From an uncultured Actinomycetes bacterium (GTDB lineage Bacteria; Actinomycetota; Thermoleophilia; RBG-16-64-13), in NCBI GenBank assembly GCA_963706025.1, contig CAVPLM010000005.1, positions 704,001 through 768,000 of the forward strand: a stretch of 64,000 bases of DNA, written 5' to 3'. Positions 21,489 to 58,627 of this stretch are shown piece by piece. The stretch's first letter is position 1; each line of letters opens with the position of its first letter. The notes beneath the pieces were generated by a model that did not search any database, was not told the origin of the DNA, and saw only the letters and a list, made by a program, of their open reading frames with translations. The position numbers and the translations under genes are program-made.

Positions 21489-22853
21489 TCAGTCGATCTC
21501 TCCGGCCAGGGCCTCGTAGCCGGGGCGTCCCATGAGGGCGTACGTGGCCTGCTTGCTCAGTTCCACTCCAGGCTGGTCGAAAGCGTCGACGTCGTACAGT
21601 TCGCCGGCGATCGCGGTCGCCATCTCCAGCAGGTAGATCAGGGCCCCCATCGAGAAGGCATCCACCCGCGGCAGCGTGATGGTCAGAGAGGGCCTGCCCT
21701 TCTGGGCCAACGCCCACGCTGTGGACCTCTGCTCGGCCCACAGCAACTCGGCCAGAGTGTGGCCGCCCAGGTAGGCCAGTGCCTCCTCCTCGGGACCCGG
21801 AGCGGGGATGGGCACGGTCTCGGCAAACTCCCCCACCCCCAGGAAAGTGATCACCTTGTCGTCCGGTCCCTCCGCGTAGAGCTGCAGCTGGGAGTGCTGG
21901 TCGGTTACGCCCAGCGCCTTGACGGGCAGAGGGCCCACGTTGACCTGGCGTCCCTGCCGGTCGACCGCTTTGCCCAGGCTCTCCGCCCACAACTGCCGGT
22001 ACCAGTCGGACAGGTCACGCAGGCGGGCTGAGTAGGGCATCATCACGCTGACTCTGCGTCCCAGATGGGTGTCCTCTAGGTACTGGACGCCGGCGAACGT
22101 GCAGGCCGGGTTGTCCCACCCCCCGGTGGCCCCGATCCACTGGGCCATATCCCGGGCCCCCGCGAGAAGCGCGCCCACGTCCATCCCGGTAAGCGCGGCC
22201 GGGAGCAATCCCACCGCGCTCAAGACTGAGAACCGCCCCCCCACACCGGGCGGCAGGTCGAACATGGGCACCCCCGAGGCGGCCCCGATCTTGCGCAGCA
22301 CACCGCCGGTCGGATCGGTGGTGAACACCAGATGGTCTTTGACCGCCGCCCCGCCCACAGCGGCCTCTAGACGCTCCCGGACCACCAGATAGCCCGCCAT
22401 CGACTCTCCCGTGGTCCCCGACTTGGAGATGACGTTTACCAGGGTCCGGCTGAGATCCAGACGACCGAGCACCGCCGCCGTCTCGTCGGGGTCGACGTTG
22501 TCGAGCACGTAGAGACGAGGCCTCTGACCGCGTTCGGCAGGGCTGAGCTCGTTGTAGTGGAAGGGTAGAAGGGCGGTGGCCAAGGCGGTGGTGCCCAGCG
22601 CCGATCCGCCGATACCGATGACGAGCAGGGAGTCGTACCTGCCTCGCCTTTCGTCCGCGAACGCCAGAAAGCCGGACGGGTCTCGGCGAGGGAGGTCCAT
22701 CCAGCCCAGCATCCCGGTCCCGGCGTTCTGGAGCAGCACCTTGCGGGCCTGCTGCAGGCGGGGCCGCAGTTCTTCCAGCATGGGGGGCGTCAGCCCCCGT
22801 TCTTGGCCCGGCCCGGCCATGCAACGCTCGATATCCAGCGACAGTCTGTCCAC
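21489..22853 (-). CDS. pgi: Glucose-6-phosphate isomerase
   Basis: IGIGGSALG, SKSGTT, GGRFSVLS, QLWAESLGK, DQHSQLQ, FDQPGVE. Confidence 0.96.
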   Translation of the reverse strand: MDRLSLDIERCMAGPGQERGLTPPMLEELRPRLQQARKVLLQNAGTGMLGWMDLPRRDPSGFLAFADERRGRYDSLLVIGIGGSALGTTALATALLPFHYNELSPAERGQRPRLYVLDNVDPDETAAVLGRLDLSRTLVNVISKSGTTGESMAGYLVVRERLEAAVGGAAVKDHLVFTTDPTGGVLRKIGAASGVPMFDLPPGVGGRFSVLSAVGLLPAALTGMDVGALLAGARDMAQWIGATGGWDNPACTFAGVQYLEDTHLGRRVSVMMPYSARLRDLSDWYRQLWAESLGKAVDRQGRQVNVGPLPVKALGVTDQHSQLQLYAEGPDDKVITFLGVGEFAETVPIPAPGPEEEALAYLGGHTLAELLWAEQRSTAWALAQKGRPSLTITLPRVDAFSMGALIYLLEMATAIAGELYDVDAFDQPGVELSKQATYALMGRPGYEALAGEID

Positions 22854-24128
22854 GACGTCTCCCCTTCTGCTCGGTCGTCTACTTCAGCCCCGTCGCGCTC
22901 CGCATCGCGAAGCGCCTCCTCCCAGCACCGCCAGATCTCCTCGTCGTAGCGCGTCTTCAGACTCGCCCAGTCGAAGCGGGACACCCACGTCCTCTGCCAG
23001 TCCTCCGACCAGGCCCGCGGCCGAGCCAACGCCCTGGCAAGAGCGGCTACCAGCTCACCTTCCCCGTAGAGCACGTCTTCATGCGCTTCAGCGGGGATCA
23101 TCTCCGGGTAGCTGAGTCGGCGGGGCAGGACCGGCCGGCACCCACAATACATGGCTTCCACCACCGCTATCCCGAAGAACTCGTGGACGGCCGTGGAGAC
23201 CACCACGTCGGACGCCCAGAGAAGAGCGGCGTAGTCAGTGGTCCGCGTCACTCTCCCCCACTGCACGATCTCGTCCGCCAGCTCTCGTCTGGCCCGCAAG
23301 AACTCGGCCGTCGGCGTGCCCTGGTTAGGCCCGGCCATCGCCAGCCGGAAGCGGACCCCGGAAGCCTTCAATTCGTACAGGGCGGCGAACAGGTCGGCCG
23401 GAGCCTTGTCGTACTCCCAGCGCTGGTTCCAGAGGATGAGGGGCCCGGCACCGGGATCGCCCCACCGCCCGGCGGCCGCCTGCGACAGGCGCCGCTGACC
23501 GGTGTCGGTCGAAGCGGCGCAGATCGCACCCCACGGGCAGGACGCGCGACTTCGCCTCCACCTGTTCAACGACCCAGTCGGGGATCTCGTCCGGCATCGC
23601 CTGCAGGAGTTCCGCGCAGGCCCGCAGGAAGTCCCGTCGGTGAAACTCGCTGTTGAAGAGCACCGTGTGGGCCGCCGCCGCGGACGTGAGGTTCTTGAAG
23701 CCGTAGCCCAGGTCGCGCTCCACCCCTGGTGGCAAAGGATAGGTGAGCTGATTCTCGTGGAAGTAAACGATCGCCGGCGCGCGGGCCACTCGAGGCCCAA
23801 CGGCTGACAGGAATACCGGCAGGTCGAGCATGTCCGAGGTGAAGAGGACGTCGGGGCCGCCGACACGCACGCCGCCATCAAGCGGACCGGCGTCCGGTGG
23901 ACCGGCGCCGGGCGACTCGAACGCGGATCCCCGATTACCCCCCTCGCTCACCCGGCGGGCCAGAGATAGAGCCCCCCCGTGCATCCGCCACTTCCAGTGG
24001 CGTCCAGGGAGGGTGAACAGCGTGAGGTGGTGCGCGGAATGCCGTGCCAGCCCCTCCAGGAAGTACTTGTGAGAGCCTCCGAAGTAGGGCTCGACCGCCC
24101 AGACCTTGAGTCTTGATTGTCGGTTCAC
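22790..24128 (-). CDS. DUF3524/GTDC1-like GT-B glycosyltransferase (frameshift near 23490)
   Basis: EPYFGGSH, LPGRHWKWRMHGG, YFHENQLTYP, FNSEFH, WNQRWEYDKAP, HEFFGIAVVEA. Confidence 0.87.
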
Positions 24129-24311
24129 AGCGCCGTCTCGTCTCCCGTCTGTCTTCGTCGGGCTCCAGCCGCCGCTCAGCCACAGGTCTCCCTCCACCCC
24201 GGGACCCCCCCGGCGGGGGATCCCTCCAGGGATCTCTGGCGGCTCTTGCACTGATTCTATATGCTGGCCCGGCCGGGGCACAGTGAACGCCGAGCAAGGG
24301 AGACGGGGACA

Positions 24312-25263
24312 ATGGTGAGGGAGATCGGCGGGCAGCGGCCGGCACGCCGCAAGCTGTCCCCTCTCATCGGGGCCCAGATCTCCACCGCCGGCGGCTTCGC
24401 GCCGGTCCCGGAGCGCGCGGTCGCGATCGGGGCCGAGGTGGTACAGGTCTTCTCCTCCAATCCTCGGACCTGGCACTCGCGTCCCCACTCTCCCGAGGAG
24501 ATCGCCGCCCTCACCGCCGGCTTGAAGCGGAACGGCCTGCCTCTGTTCCTTCATACGATCTATCTGCTCAACCTCGCCTCTCCGGACGAGGAGCTGCGCC
24601 GCCGCTCCGGCCAGGCGCTGTCCGAGGCGCTTGTTGTGGGTGCGCTTACGGCCGCGGCCGGGGTGGTCACCCATGTCGGCTCCCACCGAGGCGACGGTTT
24701 TGCGGCCGCCTTGCCGCGCGTCCGCGCGACAGTGCTGGCGGCCATCGACCGCGCCCAGGAGTCCCTATCGACGCAGGGCTACGAGCGGGCTCTCCCCCGG
24801 CTGCTTCTCGAGAACGGTGCCGGCTCGGGAGATACCGTGGGCGGTCAGTCTGGAGGAGTTGGCCGCGCTTCTGGAGACGCTTCCGTCGTCGTGCGGTCTC
24901 TGTCTCGATACTGCGCATCTCTTCGCGGCCGGCCATCCCGTGCACACCGGGGCGGGGCTGCAGGATCTGGTGGACCGGCTCCGCGACGACCGACTCCTGG
25001 ACCGGCTTGCCCTGATCCATCTCAACGATTCCAAGACGCCGTTCGCCTCGGGCCGCGACCAGCACGAGAACCCCGGTGAGGGCTACATCGGCAAGACCGG
25101 GCTGGCCCGGGTGGTCCGGCACCCGGCGTTCGCCTCCATCCCGTTCGTGCTGGAGGTGCCGGGCGAGAAGGGCCACGGACCGGACGCCGTCAACGTAGCC
25201 CGGGTGAAGCTAATGCGGCAGGGGGCGGGAGGCCGACCGAAACGGCCTGCTCTCGGCGCATGA
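24312..25263 (+). CDS. nfo: Endonuclease IV (frameshift near 24845)
   Basis: QVFSSNPR, HTIYLLNLAS, HVGS, LLENGAG, CLDTAH, HLNDSK, DQHE. Confidence 0.92.
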
Positions 25264-26130: not shown

Positions 26131-26610
26131 ATGATCGAGTACCGTCTAGCCTCCCACGGGGATACCTCTCAACTCCTCCCGCTCCTGGCTGAGATCATGG
26201 AGGATCATGGGGTATCGCCTCCCTCGACCGAGCGCCTCGAGGCCACCATCGAGACCGTATTGTCCTCCTCCGGTCATTCGCTTCTGGTGGCCGAATCCGA
26301 TGGCCGCCTGATAGGCATGTGCGCCCTCATCTTCTCTTACAGCACCTGGTCGAGTTCACTGGTGTGTGAGCTTCAAGACGTCGTGGTCACGGAAGCCTAC
26401 CGCCGGGAGCACGTGGGCCGGGATCTCGTGAGTGCGGCCGAATCTCTCGCCCGGGCGCGCGGCTGCAGCCGGCTCTTCCTCTTGGCCGAGGCCTGGAACC
26501 TTCAGGCCCACGCTTTCTACCGCAGTCTGGGACTGGCGGAGAAGACCTGCCTCTACTTCGAGCGCGCCCTTAGCGACCAGGAACCCGACCAGACAGGCGC
26601 CCTACCTTAG
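26131..26610 (+). CDS. GNAT acetyltransferase
   Basis: YSTW..LQDVVVTEAYRREHVGR..N..AHAFYRSLG. Confidence 0.85.
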   Translation: MIEYRLASHGDTSQLLPLLAEIMEDHGVSPPSTERLEATIETVLSSSGHSLLVAESDGRLIGMCALIFSYSTWSSSLVCELQDVVVTEAYRREHVGRDLVSAAESLARARGCSRLFLLAEAWNLQAHAFYRSLGLAEKTCLYFERALSDQEPDQTGALP

Positions 26611-27961
26611 GAACGGTGGGACCTCCAACTCATCGCCGGGACCGGTTGGTTCGCGCGGTTCTTGGCGAGAATCCTCCGAGGGGACAGGCTCGGAGGCGAC
26701 AGACTCGGGGGCGACACGCGGTGGCGTGGCCACACCGTAGGGATGATCGTGCCTCGTGGCGCTGACCACCTGCTCGGTCAGGACCTCTTCGCTGGTCGCG
26801 TCGAACCCGGCGGCGACCACCGTCACCCAGAGCGTGTCACCCAGAGCCTCATCCACGACTGCGCCGAAGATGATGTTGGCTTCAGGATCGGCAGCCACGT
26901 TGACGATCTCCGCCACCTCGTTGACCTCGTGCAGCGACAGGTCCTTTCCCCCGCTGATGTTCAGCAGTATTCCCCGCGCGCCCTCGATAGACGTCTCCAG
27001 CAAAGAGGAGTTGATCGCCATCTCCGCCGCTTTCTGAGCGCGCTGCTCGCCTCGGGCCCGGCCGATCCCCATGTGGGCCGTCCCCGCCCCGGTCATGATC
27101 GTGCGCACGTCGGCCGAGATCGAGGTTGATCAGCCCCGGCACGGTGACCAGGTCGCAGATGCCCTGCACGCCCTGGCGAAGCACGTCGTCGGCCAACCGC
27201 AAGGCCGCCACCATCGAGGTGCCCCTGTCGGCGACCTCGAGGAGCTTGTCGTTCGGGACCACGATGACCGTGTCGGCCTTCGACCGCAGGACGCGCACGC
27301 CCTCGAGAGCCTGCAGACCCCGACGCTTGCCCTCGAAGACGAAGGGCCGTGACACCACCCCGATGGTGAGCGCTCCCAGAGACTTCGCTATCTCGGCCAC
27401 CACCGGCGCGGCACCGGTGCCGGTGCCGCCCCCTTCCCCGGCCGTTATGAACACCATGTCGCTGCCCTTGAGCACAGCCTTGATCTCGTCGTAGGCGGCA
27501 GCGGCTGCTTCCCGTCCGACCTTAGGGTCGGAGCCTCCTCCCAGACCCTTGGTCAACTCCCGACCGATGCGCAACTTGTGGTCGGCCTCGCACATGTTGA
27601 GTGCCTGAGCATCGGTGTTGATGGCGATGAATTCCACCCCTTCGAGCCCGGCCTCGAGCATGCGATTGATGGCGTTGGTGCCCGCGCCCCCTACCCCAAC
27701 CACTCGAATGACAGCGGGAAAGCTGCGTGACGGCTGGATCAGGGTCCGTCGGCCTGCCGCCGGGTGGCTCGGCATGTCCCATGGGCTATCGACGGCTTGA
27801 GAATCCGTGCTCTCGGCACCGGTCTGATCCTCGGGCTGAGCTGCGACCTCAGCTTGGTCGTCAGTGGCGGCGGGGACTTCCTCGTCACCGGGCTTGCCCG
27901 CCTCCGTCGCCCTGAAGAGAGAGCTGAGGCCGCTGTCCTTCATGCTAGATCTTTTTTCCAT
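26602..27961 (-). CDS. ftsZ: Cell division protein FtsZ with ~80-aa N-terminal extension (single-base insertion near 27115)
   Basis: [36 protein letters not shown] across the indel, ANIIFGA, C-terminal ELEVPPFLR. Confidence 0.95.
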
Positions 27962-28703
27962 TGAGCACCTCTCTCGCAAGCTGGCGATACGCCTGGGCTG
28001 CCTTGCTGCCGGGCGCGTACTTGAGCACCGACTCCCCTTTGACCGGCGCCTCCGCGAACCTGATCGTCTTCGCGATGGTGGTCTCGAACACAAGATCGCC
28101 GAAGCTGTTCCTGAGCACCTCGACGGCCTCCCGCCCATGCACCGTCCGAGAATCGTACATAGTGGCCACGATCCCGGCAATATGGACCTCGGGGTTGAGA
28201 TTATCCCGGACCAGCTCAAGAGTCCGCTCCAACTGGGCCAGACCCCGCAACGACAGGTACTCGCATTGTACGGGAACGATCACGCCGTCGGCGGCGGTGA
28301 GCGCGTTGACGGTGAGCAAACCCAGAGAAGGAGGAGTGTCGATCATTATGTAGTCATAGCGATCGCCCACTTGGAGCAAGGCTTTGCTCAGCATCCTCTC
28401 CCTACCGATAAGCGAGCTGAGCGAGATCTCGGCCGCGGCCAGATCGATGCTCGACACCGCCACGTCAACCTCCCGGTGGACAAGCACCTCCTCGATGCTC
28501 ACCCCGTTGACCAGCACGTCGAACATGCTGGGTCGGGCGTCGTTGGGATTCAACCCCAAACTCATGGTCAGGTTGCCTTGGGGATCCATATCCACCGTGA
28601 GCACCCGGTATCCCAACTCCTGGAACGCCACGCCCAGATTGAGAGTGGTCGTGGTCTTTGCCACGCCGCCCTTCTGGTTCGCAAAGGCTACGACTTTGGC
28701 CAA
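27945..28703 (-). CDS. parA: ParA/Soj-family ATPase
   Basis: Deviant Walker A NQKGGVAKTTT, DMDPQGN, DTPPSLG, PVQCEY, EAP. Confidence 0.93.
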   Translation of the reverse strand: MAKVVAFANQKGGVAKTTTTLNLGVAFQELGYRVLTVDMDPQGNLTMSLGLNPNDARPSMFDVLVNGVSIEEVLVHREVDVAVSSIDLAAAEISLSSLIGRERMLSKALLQVGDRYDYIMIDTPPSLGLLTVNALTAADGVIVPVQCEYLSLRGLAQLERTLELVRDNLNPEVHIAGIVATMYDSRTVHGREAVEVLRNSFGDLVFETTIAKTIRFAEAPVKGESVLKYAPGSKAAQAYRQLAREVLNGKKI

Positions 28704-28724
28704 ATACCGCTCCCTTTGGTCTGG

Positions 28725-28890
28725 GAACTCGTTTCAGAATGAAGTCTCGGCCGCCTCATTCCGCGCTGGGCGGAGCGATCCATTTGTCCTTCAGTCGCGC
28801 CCGTAGCGCTGCTACGACCGCTCCCTCTAGTCCTCGCCTCACTCGCGCCGATCGCACCCTGTCGGCAAAGCGTCATTCCGAAACGAGCTC
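28725..28890 (-). ncRNA. Putative structured RNA (6S-like rod or 5' leader of parA-ftsZ)
   Basis: 18-bp closing stem (28890-28873 with 28742-28725) fully paired on the minus strand using two G-U pairs; inner GCGAUC/GAUCGC stem; central CGUAGC-AGC-GCUACG hairpin. Confidence 0.5.
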
Positions 28891-29036
28891 TAATAGCGAT
28901 TGCCTAGGTCTACTATGATTACCTTTTCGAGAGAGTTTCGAAAGAGAGCCTCGGAATCCTCCGTGCAAGAGCCGGCAGACGAGAACGAGCCGCCCCGATA
29001 TGCACCGTCACCTTGACTACTTCTTCGAACGAACGG

Positions 29037-30530
29037 CTAGCGCGCGACCGTCTCCAAACCCGATTTGAGGAAGCCCGAGGTCACCGATACGGGCGGCGCG
29101 TGTGAATCGGAGAAGTCCTTGAGCTCACGCAAGAAATCACGGTTCTCGCGCACGTGTTCCCAGGCACGGCTGATCAGGTATCCCTGCAACTGATGCTTGT
29201 GGTACATGGGGGCTTTGGGCCTGATGCTCAGGACGCGCCGCCCTTTGTAGAAACGCTTGTGAGCCTGAAGCAGTATCTCCTGCAACTCGAACGGGGTCAT
29301 CTGCTTGGGCCAGAACACCACGTGATGCCCATCGTAGAGGCTCCAGTTCTTGGTGAAGATGCGGCCTTCAGCCTCGAACTGAGCGGTCTGCCGAGTGCCC
29401 GGCAGGGGAGTCAAGGCCAGGAACTGAACGCTGTTGAGACCGTGCTGAGTGGCAAAGTCCGCCGTCTGTTGAAGTGATTCCGCGGTGTCGGAGTCGGCTC
29501 CGCACACGAACATGCCATGCGTCTTGATGCCTCTTTGCGCCAGTGCCTCCAGCCCACCGGCCATGTCGTCGATACTGGACTCCTTGTGGTACTCCTTGAG
29601 GGTAGCCGGATTGATGGATTCAAGCCCCAGATAGACGATCCGGCAGCCCGCACTCCAGAGCAGGTCCAGCAATTCCCGATCGACCTTGCCGTCTTTGTAC
29701 ACGGAATCGACCCGGATCTGAGCGAAGAACTCCACTTCCGCCTTCTCCCGGATCATCTGCGTCAGCAGTTCTTTGCCCCGCCGTTTGCTGATGAAGAAGT
29801 TGTCGTCGTAGAAGAAGAGCTTCTCCGGTTTCATCCGCTTGATCTGCCTGACGACCTCGGCCGGCTCGACTGTGCGCACCCGGCGGCCGAACATGAGGAC
29901 GACCGAGCAGAACTCACATCCGAACGGGCAACCGCGCGAGGCCAGGATGGGCGTGGGCTGCACCTGCTCGCCCCCCACCACCAGACTAATATCCGGCCAG
30001 GGTAGGTCGGTGAGGGAAGTGAGGAGAGGCCGGGAAGGGTTGTGTACGACCTGGCCGTGCTTGTCCCGATAGGTGAGACCCAGGATGGCCTCCAGCGACC
30101 CGCGGCCCTGGAGGTAGTCGACCAGCTCGACCAGGGCCCCTTCCCCTTCGTTGCGGATCACGTAGTCGCAGAAATCCATGGCCTCGTCGGCCAAGAAGGT
30201 CACGTGAGGCCCGCCCATGATCACCGGGACTCCCGCATCTCGCACCCGCTGCGCGTAGCGATAGGCGCGGACGGCCGTAGAAGTGGTGGTCGAGATTCCG
30301 ACCAGGTCCGAGGATAGGACGTCGTCCCAATCGACCTCGCTAAGGCTCTCCGCATAGATGCGCACCTGGTGGCCGCGCTGGGTCATCATGGCGCCCAGCA
30401 GCGGCAGACCCAGCCGGAGCTGCTTCACGAAACTGTATACATGGAAGCCGGGAGCGGCAGGTTCGATGAAGGTGATGCGCACGCCAACCTCGCAAATACT
30501 CGATTCATCGCGCGGGAAATATGGTAGCAC
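29037..30530 (-). CDS. B12-binding-domain radical SAM protein
   Basis: GGPHVT, SRGCPFGCEFC, DDNF, GLES, LTPLPGT. Confidence 0.92.
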   Translation of the reverse strand: MLPYFPRDESSICEVGVRITFIEPAAPGFHVYSFVKQLRLGLPLLGAMMTQRGHQVRIYAESLSEVDWDDVLSSDLVGISTTTSTAVRAYRYAQRVRDAGVPVIMGGPHVTFLADEAMDFCDYVIRNEGEGALVELVDYLQGRGSLEAILGLTYRDKHGQVVHNPSRPLLTSLTDLPWPDISLVVGGEQVQPTPILASRGCPFGCEFCSVVLMFGRRVRTVEPAEVVRQIKRMKPEKLFFYDDNFFISKRRGKELLTQMIREKAEVEFFAQIRVDSVYKDGKVDRELLDLLWSAGCRIVYLGLESINPATLKEYHKESSIDDMAGGLEALAQRGIKTHGMFVCGADSDTAESLQQTADFATQHGLNSVQFLALTPLPGTRQTAQFEAEGRIFTKNWSLYDGHHVVFWPKQMTPFELQEILLQAHKRFYKGRRVLSIRPKAPMYHKHQLQGYLISRAWEHVRENRDFLRELKDFSDSHAPPVSVTSGFLKSGLETVAR

Positions 30531-33445: not shown

Positions 33446-34934
33446 ATGCGCTACGAGAGTCACAGTGATGACGAACGCCGTTTCATGCTCGGCGTACTAG
33501 GTCTCGAGTCCGTCGACGACCTCTTCGCTCTCATACCCCCACCGCTGCGGCGGACAGAGCTACGACTGGCGCCCGGGCTCAGCGAGCCGGAAGTGCGCGA
33601 GACCATGGAAGCCCTGGCCTCTGCCGACCGTCCGCCGGGTCCGACGTCGTTCCTGGGAGCAGGTTGCTACAGCCACTTCGTGCCTGCCGCCGTTCGTGCT
33701 CTGACGGGCCGCGGCGAGTTCGCCACGGCCTACACCCCCTATCAGGCGGAGGTCAGCCAGGGCACGCTCCAATACATCTTCGAGTTTCAGAGCTGCGTCT
33801 GCGAGCTCACGGGCATGGAGGTAGCCAACGCGTCCCTCTATGACGGACCCTCGGCGCTGGCCGAGGCCGCCTTCATGGCGTTGCGCCTCACTCGGAGGGA
33901 GGGGATACTGATCTCGTCCGGCGTCCACCCGGAGGCCGCTCAGGTGGTGGCCAGCTACGCCGCCGGCCCCGATCTCCCTATCTACGGATGGCCCCTGGAC
34001 CCACGCTCGGGAGCCACCGGCACCATCGATGGTCATCTACCGGCGGGCGGTCCAGGGGTCGAAGGTCTCGCAGGACTCCGTCGGGGCGGTGCTGGTGCAA
34101 CAGCCCAACGTGCTCGGAGTGGTCGAGGACCTGAAGCTGCTCGCGGAGGCCGCACACAGCCTCGGCGCCTTGCTGGTGGTCGCGGTCAACCCGGTGACGC
34201 TCGGGATCCTGGAACCGCCGGGCACGGCCGGGGCGGATATCGCGGTCGGCGACGTGCAGGTGTTCGGCAACGCCCCCACCTTCGGAGGTCCGTCCGCGGG
34301 CTTCCTGGCCTGCCGCGAGGCTTACACCCGGCAGATCCCAGGACGTCTGGTGGGTCAGACCCTCGATGAGGACGGGCAGACCTGCTACACCCTGACGCTG
34401 CAGGCCCGCGAGCAGCACATCCGCCGGGCCAAGGCCACCTCCAACATCTGCTCCAACCAGTCCCTGAACGCGCTCGCCGCCACCATACACCTGAGCCTGC
34501 TCGGGCCCCAGGGATTGCGCCGCCTGGGAGAGATCTGCCTGCAGCGCGCCCACCACCTCCAGGTCGAGCTTTGCTCCCTGCCTGGAGTGGAGCCTCTGAT
34601 GGACGGCCCGTTCTTCCACGAGTTCGCCTTGAAGCTCCCTTGCTCCGCCGATTGTTTCAGAACCGCCATGCGCGACCGAGGCGTCGATCCAGGCGTTCCT
34701 CTGAGTCGTCTGCTCGCCGCCCGTGCGCCCCTGGCCGGCGCCGCCGAGACCGGCGCCGCCGCGACCGGCGCCGCCCCAACCGACGGGGGTCCAGTGAGTC
34801 TGGGCCTGATCGACAACGCGCTTCTGGTCGCGGTGACCGAGTCCAACCCGCCTGAGGCCCTCGAACTGTATGTGGCCGCCGCTCGCGAGGTGCTCGCCCG
34901 ACTCGCCCCTTCCTCGAAGGACCGCCCTCAATGA
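33446..34934 (+). CDS. gcvPA: Glycine dehydrogenase subunit 1 (frameshift near 34040)
   Basis: FLGAGCYSH, YTPYQAEVSQG, NASLYDG, TLQAREQHIRRAKATSNICSNQ. Confidence 0.94.
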
Positions 34935-57270: not shown

Positions 57271-58627
57271 CTAGTCTGTGTGGGCCGCCCGGAGCTCAGC
57301 CGATAGACGGTGGAACGGGAAGCCTTCGCTGTTGGCCAGCTTGGCCAGAAGCGGGGGCAGGGTCGTGACGGCCTTCGGCAGACATCTCCACCACGGAGGA
57401 CTTGCGCAGGAAGGTGGCCACCGATAGCGGAGAGGAGAAACGGGCCGTCCCACCGGTGGGGAGCACGTGGTTGCTGCCCGCGATGTAGTCGCCAAAGGCG
57501 GTGGGAGTGAGGTGACCGACGAAGATCCCCCCTGCCGACCTCACCCGGGGCAAGAAAGCCCCGCGCGTCGGCAAGTTGTATCTCTAGGTGTTCGGGGGCG
57601 AAGGCGTTGACCATCGCGGTCGCGAGATCCAAGAAGTCCTCCCCGATAGCCGGGTAGAACGCCGCAGAGCCGCCTTTCATCGCGCCCGGCCGGCCCAACA
57701 GCGTATCCGTTGCCCCAGTCCGCGTCGCCGGTGCGGTCGTCGCTGCCGCCGGATACCGGCAGGCGTAGGCGCTCGAGGGCTTCGGCCACCTCCAGACAGA
57801 GACACTCCGAATCTGCCATCAACACCGCCTGCGCCCCGCTCCGTGCTCCTCCTGGGCGAGCATGTCCGCCGCGATCCAGACCGCGCGAGCGGTCTGGTCG
57901 GCCACCACCAGTACCTCGCTCGGGCCGGCCAGGTTGTCGATACCCACGGCCCCATAGACCTGGCGTTTGGCCTCCATGACGTAGGCGTTGCCGGGCCCGC
58001 AGATCGACGTCCACCCGGGGTATCGTCTGGGTGCCGTAGGCCATGGCCGCAATGGCCTGAGCGCCTCCTGCCCGGAACACCCGCTCCACGCCCATGAGCC
58101 GAGCCGCGGCCAGGACCGATGAGGTTGACGCTCCCGTCCCGGCCCGGCGGAGTGCAGATGACGAGCTCATTCACCCCGGCCACGAGCGCCGGAACAGCGT
58201 TCATGATCACCGTAGACGCATACGAACCGAGGCCGCCCGGCACGTACAGGCCCGCGCGCTCGACCGGCAGGTGGCGGATGCCGAGCTTCTGCCCTTGGGC
58301 CCCTTCCTCCTCCCAATCCGGCGTCAACTCGTGCTTGTGGAAGAAGGTGCAGTTGTCGCGGGCGGTCTCCAGTGCGGCAATCACCTGCGGGTCCATCGCC
58401 TGATAGGCGGCCTCGAGATCGCCCGCCGTCACGGCCAGTGCCGAGGCGCTCGCCCCTTCCCAGTCGAACCGAGTCGTGGCCTCGACCACGGCGGCATCGC
58501 CACGCGCTCGAACATCGGCGACCAGGCCGGCCACGCCTGCTGCGACCTCCCGGCCGGCCGACTCCGGCGGTCGCAGAACCGCCACCTCGTCGGGTAGGGA
58601 GACACTCGTGAGCGCTGTGATTCTCAT
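57271..58627 (-). CDS. hisD: Histidinol dehydrogenase (several indels)
   Basis: [46 protein letters not shown] across frames. Confidence 0.92.

Follow-up and report, generated by a model that had tools for sequence, protein, structure and literature searches.

On the minus strand of a 64,000-nucleotide (nt) stretch of contig CAVPLM010000005.1 (assembly GCA_963706025.1; the whole stretch is referred to here as the window), from an uncultured bacterium of soil or sediment that belongs to the actinobacterial class Thermoleophilia, lie two overlapping genes, parA2 and ftsZ2, which encode an orphan ATPase of the ParA/Soj type and an additional FtsZ that begins with a short conserved peptide. This pair is a real, class-wide and so far undescribed variant of the ParA/partner systems in which the partner is a paralogue of FtsZ. 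With a probability of roughly 0.6, it can be viewed as a translationally coupled module of the Thermoleophilia, wherein a catalytically equipped FtsZ2 takes the place of a DNA-binding adaptor and its N-terminal tail docks on ParA2, making FtsZ2 both cargo and activator. That FtsZ might itself be the ParA partner had been proposed in a sequence-only reading of the window, and synteny, gene overlap, selection on the peptide and its homology to an adaptor all speak for that proposal; binding, stimulation of the ATPase and an effect on cell division are what we infer from them. A literature search, which stopped short of subscription journals and supplements, brought up no description of a ParA-FtsZ pair from Thermoleophilia.

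The parA2-ftsZ2 pair and its distribution

The parA2 gene (27945..28703, minus strand) starts with TTG, ends with a TAG at 27947-27945 and encodes a protein of 252 amino acids of the deviant Walker A type, its P-loop (NQKGGVAKTT) fitting the pattern KGGxxK[ST]. The product matches Pfam AAA_31 with 202 bits and CbiA with 93 bits, the solved structures closest to it are those of ParA/Soj proteins, and its score against the ParA_partition equivalog NF041546 (118.8 bits) falls below the cut-off of 180. The start codon of ftsZ2, an ATG at 27961-27959, is situated 17 nt inside parA2, which agrees with the overlap noticed in the sequence-only reading. A Shine-Dalgarno-like GAGAGGTG (27966..27973, minus strand) precedes this ATG by 4 nt, within the R-E-V codons of parA2, and is a putative ribosome-binding site. 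This word overlaps conserved C-terminal codons of ParA2, in which E245 is invariant and V246 is kept in at least 90% of the 49 ParA2 sequences compared, so that the conservation of ParA2 at this point may partly be due to nucleotide constraint.

The two parts of ftsZ2, which stand in different frames in this assembly, match the domains Tubulin (157 bits, cut-off 33) and FtsZ_C (119 bits, cut-off 27), and an intact orthologue with 90% identity scores 407 bits against the equivalog TIGR00065, for which the cut-off is 295. FtsZ2 keeps the GGGTGTG motif, and the T7 motif NxDxxD of its orthologues is either NLDLAD or NLDFAD. The surrounding DNA contains neither division and cell-wall (dcw) genes nor parB among the 50 open reading frames (ORFs) of the window that were scanned against Pfam, in agreement with what had been read from the sequence.

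The genome from which the window was taken (30 contigs, 3.66 Mb, completeness 92%, contamination 7%) has two matches to the FtsZ GTPase. The other one is an ordinary ftsZ for a protein of 362 amino acids (FtsZ1; G000:C5:143077-144165, equivalent to L003 12077-13165), located 590 kb away from the copy in the window and embedded in a dcw cluster of actinobacterial layout with the order murE-murF-mraY-murD-ftsW-murG-murC-murB-ftsQ-ftsZ-pgeF-ylmE-sepF-proC-divIVA. A search for a second ftsZ within a dcw cluster had been suggested as a check on the sequence-only reading, and because the ordinary gene is present there in full company, the window copy is regarded as a paralogue. By the same token, the idea of a minimal two-gene division system went too far, as FtsZ2 is not the only FtsZ of the cell. 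There is no ftsA between ftsQ and ftsZ in the dcw cluster, the remainder of the genome not having been searched for this gene. A canonical rsmG-parA1-parB locus occurs once, on contig C3, where the only ParB_N match of the genome is found next to ParA1, a protein that shares 44% identity with ParA2. MinC (as MinC_C) was not found in this 92%-complete genome, nor was any MinD above the cut-off of 212.9 bits, the best score (65.9 bits) being that of ParA2 itself.

In a tree of 45 ParA sequences, the 11 ParA1 form one clade and all 19 ParA2 another, the latter being sister to a clade (support 0.995) that consists of adaptor-linked and ScpA-linked ParAs, which are described below, together with two other orphan ParAs; this topology supports the assignment of ParA2 to an orphan ParA lineage. 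In a tree of 61 FtsZ cores, the 36 canonical sequences (18 Thermoleophilia FtsZ1, 14 from other classes and four from a family with tandem ftsZ genes) constitute one clade from which the 25 FtsZ2 are excluded. Mean identity is 68% between FtsZ1 and the FtsZ of other classes and 63% between FtsZ1 and FtsZ2, and together with the tree these values support the view that FtsZ2 is an old and divergent paralogue.

At least two FtsZ matches are present in 40 of the 41 Thermoleophilia genomes, the present one included, the exception being a genome that is 76% complete. The pair, the overlap and the peptide occur in 24 of the 25 genomes of the family to which the window belongs; a parA gene is directly upstream of ftsZ2 in each of the 24 family loci, and each has a start codon (ATG or GTG) at position -17. 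In six other Thermoleophilia families all 16 genomes have one ftsZ behind ftsQ and/or murB and the other directly behind a homologue of ParA2 (61-70% identity), the latter copy with the N-terminal motif. This motif was recovered at 110 loci (among L004-L145). Twenty-four of these could not be scored for the overlap between the parA stop and the ftsZ2 start; in the other 86 it measures 4-29 nt, except for one locus with 47 nt. Conservation of the peptide and of the parA-ftsZ synteny in related genomes, which the sequence-only reading had named as a check, thus extends across the class Thermoleophilia.

In the rest of the phylum, exactly one FtsZ match was obtained in 134 of 140 sampled genomes (127 of 133 when seven unpublished genomes are set aside); the remaining ones are a genome with no match, a fragmented genome with three, and four genomes of one family with two. 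The parA-ftsZ2 pair, the overlap and the peptide were not found in the other actinobacterial classes sampled. One other actinobacterial family (L150-L157; G083, G124, G137 and G163) has two tandem ftsZ genes on the same strand, about 1.5 kb apart, which represent a separate duplication.

The N-terminal peptide of FtsZ2 and the small adaptor

The conserved peptide corresponds to codons 1-19 of ftsZ2 (27905..27961, minus strand), the first 17 nt of which are shared with parA2. It contains four Lys or Arg and two Asp or Glu. Across 48 non-redundant aligned sequences M1, L15 and F16 never vary, and at least 90% share R4, S6, L12 and T19; the variant typical of the Gaiellaceae is MARKRASMREGPLAELFRATEAAQRQ, and further lineages have MADRPSMKDGLSELFRRT, MGRRASMKEGALSNLFQPTE and VKKQSMREGPLADLFRST. 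At codons G11, L12, L15, F16 and R17, which are beyond the overlap with parA2, 19 relatives differ by 32 synonymous versus 3 non-synonymous changes; at codons 21-25 the same relatives differ by 12 synonymous versus 65 non-synonymous changes. Judged by these codon counts, the peptide is under purifying selection at the protein level beyond the parA2 overlap. Two start codons further downstream were considered for ftsZ2, an ATG at 27943 just after the parA stop, where several family loci have Ile or Leu, and an internal ATG at about 27777, which is not kept in relatives; both were rejected because neither is conserved.

Codons 20-70 of ftsZ2 (27752..27904, minus strand) encode an acidic and variable linker of 51 residues, with 13 Asp or Glu versus one Lys or Arg, which is predicted to be disordered from its composition and from the predicted local distance difference test (pLDDT) values of the orthologue, much as the sequence-only reading had it. 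Linker sequence and length vary, and the whole stretch in front of the core ranges from 45 to 191 residues among the 110 loci. In the AlphaFold2 model of the intact 90%-identical orthologue the FtsZ core reaches a pLDDT of 84-98, residues 13-17 form a helix of low confidence, and residues 19-84 are below 50; the peptide is not docked on the FtsZ2 core in this model, in which residues 1-84 as a whole are of low confidence. In the Gaiellaceae (e.g. L056-L077) the FtsZ2 linker is long and rich in Pro and Glu and contains two conserved islands, TVEHVP(S/T/E)WE and LEPLPEPPPRLHR(V/A)P, which may be further docking motifs. A prediction, made without control runs, of the complex between two ParA2, two ATP and FtsZ2 residues 1-45 gave scores of 0.20 and 0.24 against a mark of 0.32 and counts neither for nor against binding.

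When FtsZ2 residues 1-40 were searched against proteins of 248-790 amino acids, 42 of the 44 matches had FtsZ domains, and the other two were the truncated gene call of the window itself and another frameshifted FtsZ2. A different kind of protein with the peptide came to light at the loci of the nearest ParA2 relatives. The best ParA2 matches outside Thermoleophilia have 50-58% identity, above the 44% between ParA2 and ParA1. Twenty such loci were inspected, three others from unpublished genomes having been left out, and in 12 of them the parA gene is followed by an ORF for 114-131 amino acids, which in most cases overlaps the parA stop by 4, 17 or 32 nt and whose product (the adaptor) begins with M/V-x-R-R-A-S-L-P-G-A-D-E-L-F-R-x-T. 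In two of the inspected loci (L214 and L215) the downstream gene is ScpA, and in one it resembles that of a nucleoside phosphorylase, to go by motifs recognised by eye; at L216 the small gene stands between parA and scpA, in that order.

A search profile built from 11 of the small proteins detected the adaptor in 26 of the 101 genomes sampled from the phylum, or 23 of 98 once three unpublished ones are set aside, and all 23 adaptor genes of the published genomes adjoin the best ParA2-like gene, which includes five of the eight loci that had shown no such ORF at first inspection. The same profile found no member in the 41 Thermoleophilia genomes. The adaptor and FtsZ2 are mutually exclusive in the genomes sampled. 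Since a small adaptor with a homologous peptide follows the closest relatives of ParA2 elsewhere, FtsZ2 is seen, on gene order and alignment, to occupy the gene slot of the adaptor with the putatively ParA-facing tail kept.

The homology between the two tails was assessed with hhalign, which aligned the FtsZ2 peptide with the adaptor N-terminus from residue 1 of both over 22 columns (P 6.2e-5, probability 65%), the shared positions being M1, R4, S6, an L-F-R triplet and a Thr. The sequence-only reading had called the peptide ParB-like, and some likeness is present: the ParB of this genome has the N-terminus MAKRPALGRGLAALLGEG, the tip compared with the peptide being MAKRPALGRGLAALL. Alignment of the FtsZ2 peptide with the ParB tips of the class, however, yielded a P of 0.011 and a probability of 3.8%, so that the resemblance to ParB is weak, the adaptor tail is by far the better match, and the ParB tip was rejected as the source of the peptide.

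The adaptors matched no Pfam or NCBIfam model. The family comprises at least 7924 clusters at 90% identity, and among the matches listed every name reads "hypothetical protein", two obvious misnomers excepted; Egicoccus halophilus has one of the members. The family is thus a very large actinobacterial family, with a conserved tail and a probable ribbon-helix-helix domain, that was always encountered beside an orphan ParA in the genomes sampled (e.g. L194-L216). In the predicted structure the C-terminal 60 residues (pLDDT 88-95) form an extended segment and two long helices. An exhaustive structural aligner returned mostly ribbon-helix-helix proteins in its top rows for this domain, with Z scores of 5.3 for TraM (root-mean-square deviation 2.3, 53 residues aligned), 4.5 for ParD2, 4.4 for CopA, 4.3 for PutA, 4.2 for NikR and for the ParB of pCXC100, and 3.9 for omega and for ParG. 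Low values are to be expected, as a domain of 50 residues needs its dimer to complete the sheet, and a ribbon-helix-helix fold is considered probable for the modelled domain. The nearest named clusters in a protein atlas (0.81-0.84; Antitox_RHH, and CB_ParB_C in 45% of members) are below the trusted level and serve as leads only. A search with adaptor residues 1-40 against longer proteins yielded 46 candidates, none at an E value up to 10, which is weak evidence against further fusion partners of the peptide.

For the N-terminal extension on the second FtsZ of Atribacter laminatus, a role as membrane-targeting amphipathic helix has been put forward in the literature (PMC7736352). Applied to FtsZ2, the peptide would provide FtsA-free tethering and parA2 would merely be co-expressed. 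The dcw cluster, where ftsZ comes straight after ftsQ without ftsA in that place and with sepF downstream, would suit this idea, as would the peak hydrophobic moment of 0.51 and the short helix predicted by AlphaFold at residues 13-17. The hydrophobic face, however, consists of just three residues (L12, L15 and F16), and the helix window is without net positive charge; R4, S6, G11, R17 and T19 are kept more strictly than amphipathicity alone requires. Moreover, the same peptide heads a small, probably DNA-binding protein that has no evident need for a membrane anchor, and wherever the overlap between the parA stop and the ftsZ2 start could be scored, it is preserved. A membrane anchor is therefore held to be a rather poor prospect, with about one chance in eight.

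It would also be conceivable that the peptide binds a different protein of the divisome, such as FtsZ1, SepF or the FtsZ2 core itself in an autoinhibitory manner, and that ParA2 has another partner. The contact between peptide and ParA2 is, after all, a proposal drawn from sequence, and four FtsZ2 loci that have lost the C-terminal tail keep the peptide. This tail is retained in most orthologues; the FtsZ2 of L115, L125, L135 and L145 (G025, G030, G035 and G040) are without its PSFLR-type sequence and still have the N-terminal peptide and the parA overlap, and for this reason the peptide could be the main protein-protein handle of FtsZ2. Against a divisome partner stands the homologous peptide of the adaptor, which is no FtsZ and is constantly accompanied by a ParA2-like gene and by nothing else, as well as the AlphaFold model, which leaves the peptide off the FtsZ2 core. 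Such an arrangement appears very unlikely, and docking of the peptide on ParA2 is preferred.

Frameshift, repeat and neighbouring genes

In the window ftsZ2 is not one open frame. The sequence-only reading had described the GGGTGTG motif and the ELEVPPFLR tail as intact; both are indeed present, although an extra base at 27114/27115 splits the gene between them. The frame that begins at ATG 27961 encodes the GTPase domain (27110-27961), exits FtsZ sequence inside the T7 loop and runs to a stop at 26882. Its part from the pre-core motif through the GTPase domain up to the frameshift, with the Tubulin match and GGGTGTG, covers 27110..27751 (minus strand). The FtsZ_C domain and the ELEVPPFLR tail sit in a different frame (26605-27111), so that the 3' part of the gene, made up of FtsZ_C, the C-terminal linker and the tail, extends over 26602..27111 (minus strand) with its stop codon at 26602-26604. 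The surplus letter, one G (C on the plus strand) located at 27114..27115, falls in the T7 loop N-L-D-L-[A]-D-V, and the frame breaks between the two Asp of NxDxxD: the window has CTCGATCTCGGCCGAC, and all nine relatives compared have CTsGAyCTsGCCGAy (L-D-L-A-D).

The frameshift is very probably an assembly error rather than biology, as the relatives lack the base, public contigs lack it as well, other genes of the window are split, and other assemblies of the family are broken in the same genes. Logan contigs that cover the site omit one letter at 27114-27119 in four of four public runs, which come from four studies of sediment and freshwater metagenomes; a 452-nt contig, for instance, has four mismatches and this single gap, and one of 610 nt has a single gap along with 15 mismatches. 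In the family assemblies L009, L018, L022, L025 and P0026, too, parA2 or ftsZ2 is broken. Within the window, two frames, 24261-25079 and 24631-25263, share the halves of an endonuclease IV-like gene, a glycosyltransferase spans two overlapping frames (22790-24686), a GcvP piece (34029-34934) begins at profile position 189, and a histidinol dehydrogenase (57677-58627) covers only profile positions 7-152 of 411. The assembly therefore looks indel-prone.

A genuine extra base would make ftsZ2 a pseudogene in this strain, with a module in decay, perhaps along with the insertion of a repeat 22 nt before parA2. The window as given is certainly frameshifted, a repeat of 166 nt is found upstream of parA2 here and not in relatives of the same genus, and no public run is shown to be the source sample. 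On the other hand, the contigs of all four runs are without the base, one of them differing from the window by only four mismatches in 452 nt, both halves of ftsZ2 retain full-length and high-scoring domains apart from the extra base, and the split genes of the window and the similar breaks in the family form the pattern expected of indel-prone assemblies. Decay of the module is accordingly thought improbable.

The repeat in question (28725..28890, no strand assigned) resembles a miniature inverted-repeat transposable element (MITE), with terminal inverted repeats of 18 nt, and sits 22 nt upstream of where parA2 starts. The genome contains 55 matches to it; five of them, besides itself, agree at 93-95% along some 165 nt. 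In another member of the family (L018/L094) the operon is flanked by a related element. The local depth of the public contigs is 20 to 30 times higher, and this high depth upstream of parA2 stems from the repeat. Scans of 28500-29200, repeat included, with Rfam and for tRNA gave no match. A sigma-70 promoter scan of 26400-29150 returned no site, a kind of scan that is not informative in a GC-rich actinobacterium. The neighbours of the locus in the window encode a GNAT acetyltransferase, a class IV aminotransferase, a B12-binding radical SAM enzyme and a two-component pair.

Proposed mechanism and known systems

A working scheme can be put forward because FtsZ2 unites a conserved tip of basic character with a long disordered arm and a domain that polymerises, and occupies the slot of the adaptor with the same overlap. 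ParA2-ATP dimers would coat the nucleoid, DNA binding being presumed. Polymers of FtsZ2 would display many N-terminal peptides on long disordered arms and so act as a multivalent activator and as cargo. The peptide would dock on ParA2 and stimulate ATP hydrolysis in the manner of other activating tails of ParA/MinD partners; the resulting ParA2 pattern would either centre FtsZ2 over the chromosome or clear it from there, and FtsZ2 might then bias assembly of the FtsZ1/SepF ring by way of its core and C-terminal tail. There is precedent for such a tail, as ParB, MinE, ParG, PomX and probably McdB and TlpT are reported to activate ParA/MinD ATPases through a short basic N-terminal stretch, and the authors of the PomX study conclude that an activator results when such a stretch is grafted on an interaction domain (PMC7993993).

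Several points count against this scheme. Gene neighbourhood alone is no proof of interaction, and binding of the peptide to ParA2 and activation of the ATPase are both putative. Apart from the initiator Met, the invariant residues of the peptide (L15 and F16) are hydrophobic, and R4 is the sole basic residue that at least 90% of the sequences share; moderate amphipathicity, with the peak moment already given, leaves room for a role at the membrane. Homology to the adaptor tail depends on some 20 residues at an hhalign probability of 65%. As to the adaptor, the ribbon-helix-helix assignment leans on Z scores of 5.3 at most, and a Foldseek search of its model against the PDB returned nothing at an E value up to 0.001, the first row being the ParB of pCXC100 with an E value of 2.2. 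The trees were made with FastTree on quick MAFFT alignments and without outgroups from other phyla, and the monophyly of ParA2 has weak support (0.565). Finally, ftsZ2 is broken in this very assembly, and none of the four runs that lack the extra base is shown to be its source sample, the best share of words being 0.69.

Another reading accepts the binding of the peptide to ParA2 and reverses its consequence. As in MipZ or nucleoid occlusion, ParA2 on the nucleoid would capture FtsZ2 by its tail and, instead of moving it as cargo, keep it and the assembly of the ring away from the chromosome. What speaks for activation in structure and genome serves this inhibitory logic equally well; in addition ParA2 scores above the Pfam cut-off for MipZ (46.5 versus 20.7 bits), and a Min system was looked for and not found. 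The match to MipZ stays well below that to AAA_31, however, and in the relatives with an adaptor the homologous tail belongs to a cargo-type partner. Inhibition is on balance considered unlikely, at something like one chance in seven, even if Pom-like positive placement and MipZ-like or occlusion-like exclusion cannot be told apart at the level of sequence.

It may be, at somewhat less than even odds, that the FtsZ filament itself is both the cargo and the activator of a ParA diffusion-ratchet that works with no adaptor and positions part of the cytokinetic machinery on the nucleoid, and that this arrangement arose when the DNA-binding domain of a chromosomal, type-Ib-like adaptor was swapped for FtsZ with the tail kept. 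Were this the case, the orphan ParA lineage of many other Actinobacteria would have its missing partner in the small adaptor, and the whole lineage, PldP-like proteins included, would serve the positioning of division sites or a chromosome-linked positioning. The placement of the division ring in Actinobacteria, which do without Min and Noc, is a question of long standing for which PldP has been the only candidate, with no known partner (PMC3989709). The Thermoleophilia offer, as an entire class, a natural and hard-wired ParA-FtsZ pair with a defined handle of 20 residues, and sister classes carry the same handle on a small protein of probable DNA-binding type, which opens the question to direct experiment.

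Among the systems that place FtsZ, MinCDE is set apart in that neither MinC nor a MinD above the cut-off was found in this genome. MipZ of Caulobacter is a ParA-like ATPase that acts directly on FtsZ, as is proposed for ParA2; it needs ParB, however, and inhibits the only FtsZ of the cell. PldP (Cg1610) and Rv1708 of the Corynebacterineae resemble ParA2 in being orphan ParAs without a ParB, and the ScpA-linked L214 and L215 belong to the clade that is sister to ParA2; these two are putative PldP orthologues on the strength of the parA-scpA order of Rv1708. No second FtsZ is involved with PldP. Loss of this protein in Corynebacterium leads to minicells and to cells of variable length, and it is described as having no known partner (PMC3989709). 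Atribacter laminatus has two FtsZ, one conventional and one N-terminally extended, the extension having been read as a membrane helix (Katayama et al. 2020, PMC7736352), and 9 of 6751 type strains were reported to combine a typical and an N-terminally extended FtsZ (PMC7736352). For this extended FtsZ, the main-text passages of the paper mention neither a linkage to ParA nor Thermoleophilia, a class that the supplements may name.

The module shares with ParABS the overlapping order of parA and then partner, and FtsZ2 starts with M-x-K-R followed by G-L-x-x-L, which can be set beside the ParB tip given above. It differs from ParABS by the weak alignment of peptide and ParB tip (P 0.011), the 44% identity between ParA2 and ParA1, and the lack of a ParB domain and of parS. 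In the type Ib partition pairs, namely ParF-ParG of TP228, ParA-ParB of pCXC100 and delta-omega of pSM19035, a small Walker-type ParA is combined with a centromere-binding protein of the ribbon-helix-helix kind that has a flexible N-terminal tail. The partition system of pCXC100 has been classified as type Ib (PMC3074162), and ParG is among the activators with a basic N-terminal stretch (PMC7993993). The likeness consists of a ParA-type gene with, directly behind it, the gene of a partner that has an N-terminal tail, which in FtsZ2 would face the ATPase, and, in the relatives of ParA2, of an adaptor with a probable ribbon-helix-helix domain. The difference is that the partner of ParA2 is a whole FtsZ instead of a DNA-binding domain, and that the module is chromosomal and class-wide, with a centromere site neither expected nor known.

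PomXYZ of Myxococcus xanthus, which corresponds to the proposed module in working principle only, has a nucleoid-bound ParA-like ATPase that determines where the division site lies and is activated by a basic N-terminal peptide of 22 residues on a polymer-forming partner (PMC7993993). In that system PomX or PomY serves as activator, with FtsZ being recruited in a second step; in the parA2 module the peptide is carried by the FtsZ paralogue. The pair would be a clean example of the modular nature of ParA activators, whereby a basic tail can be grafted on any interaction domain (PMC7993993), in this case one that polymerises.

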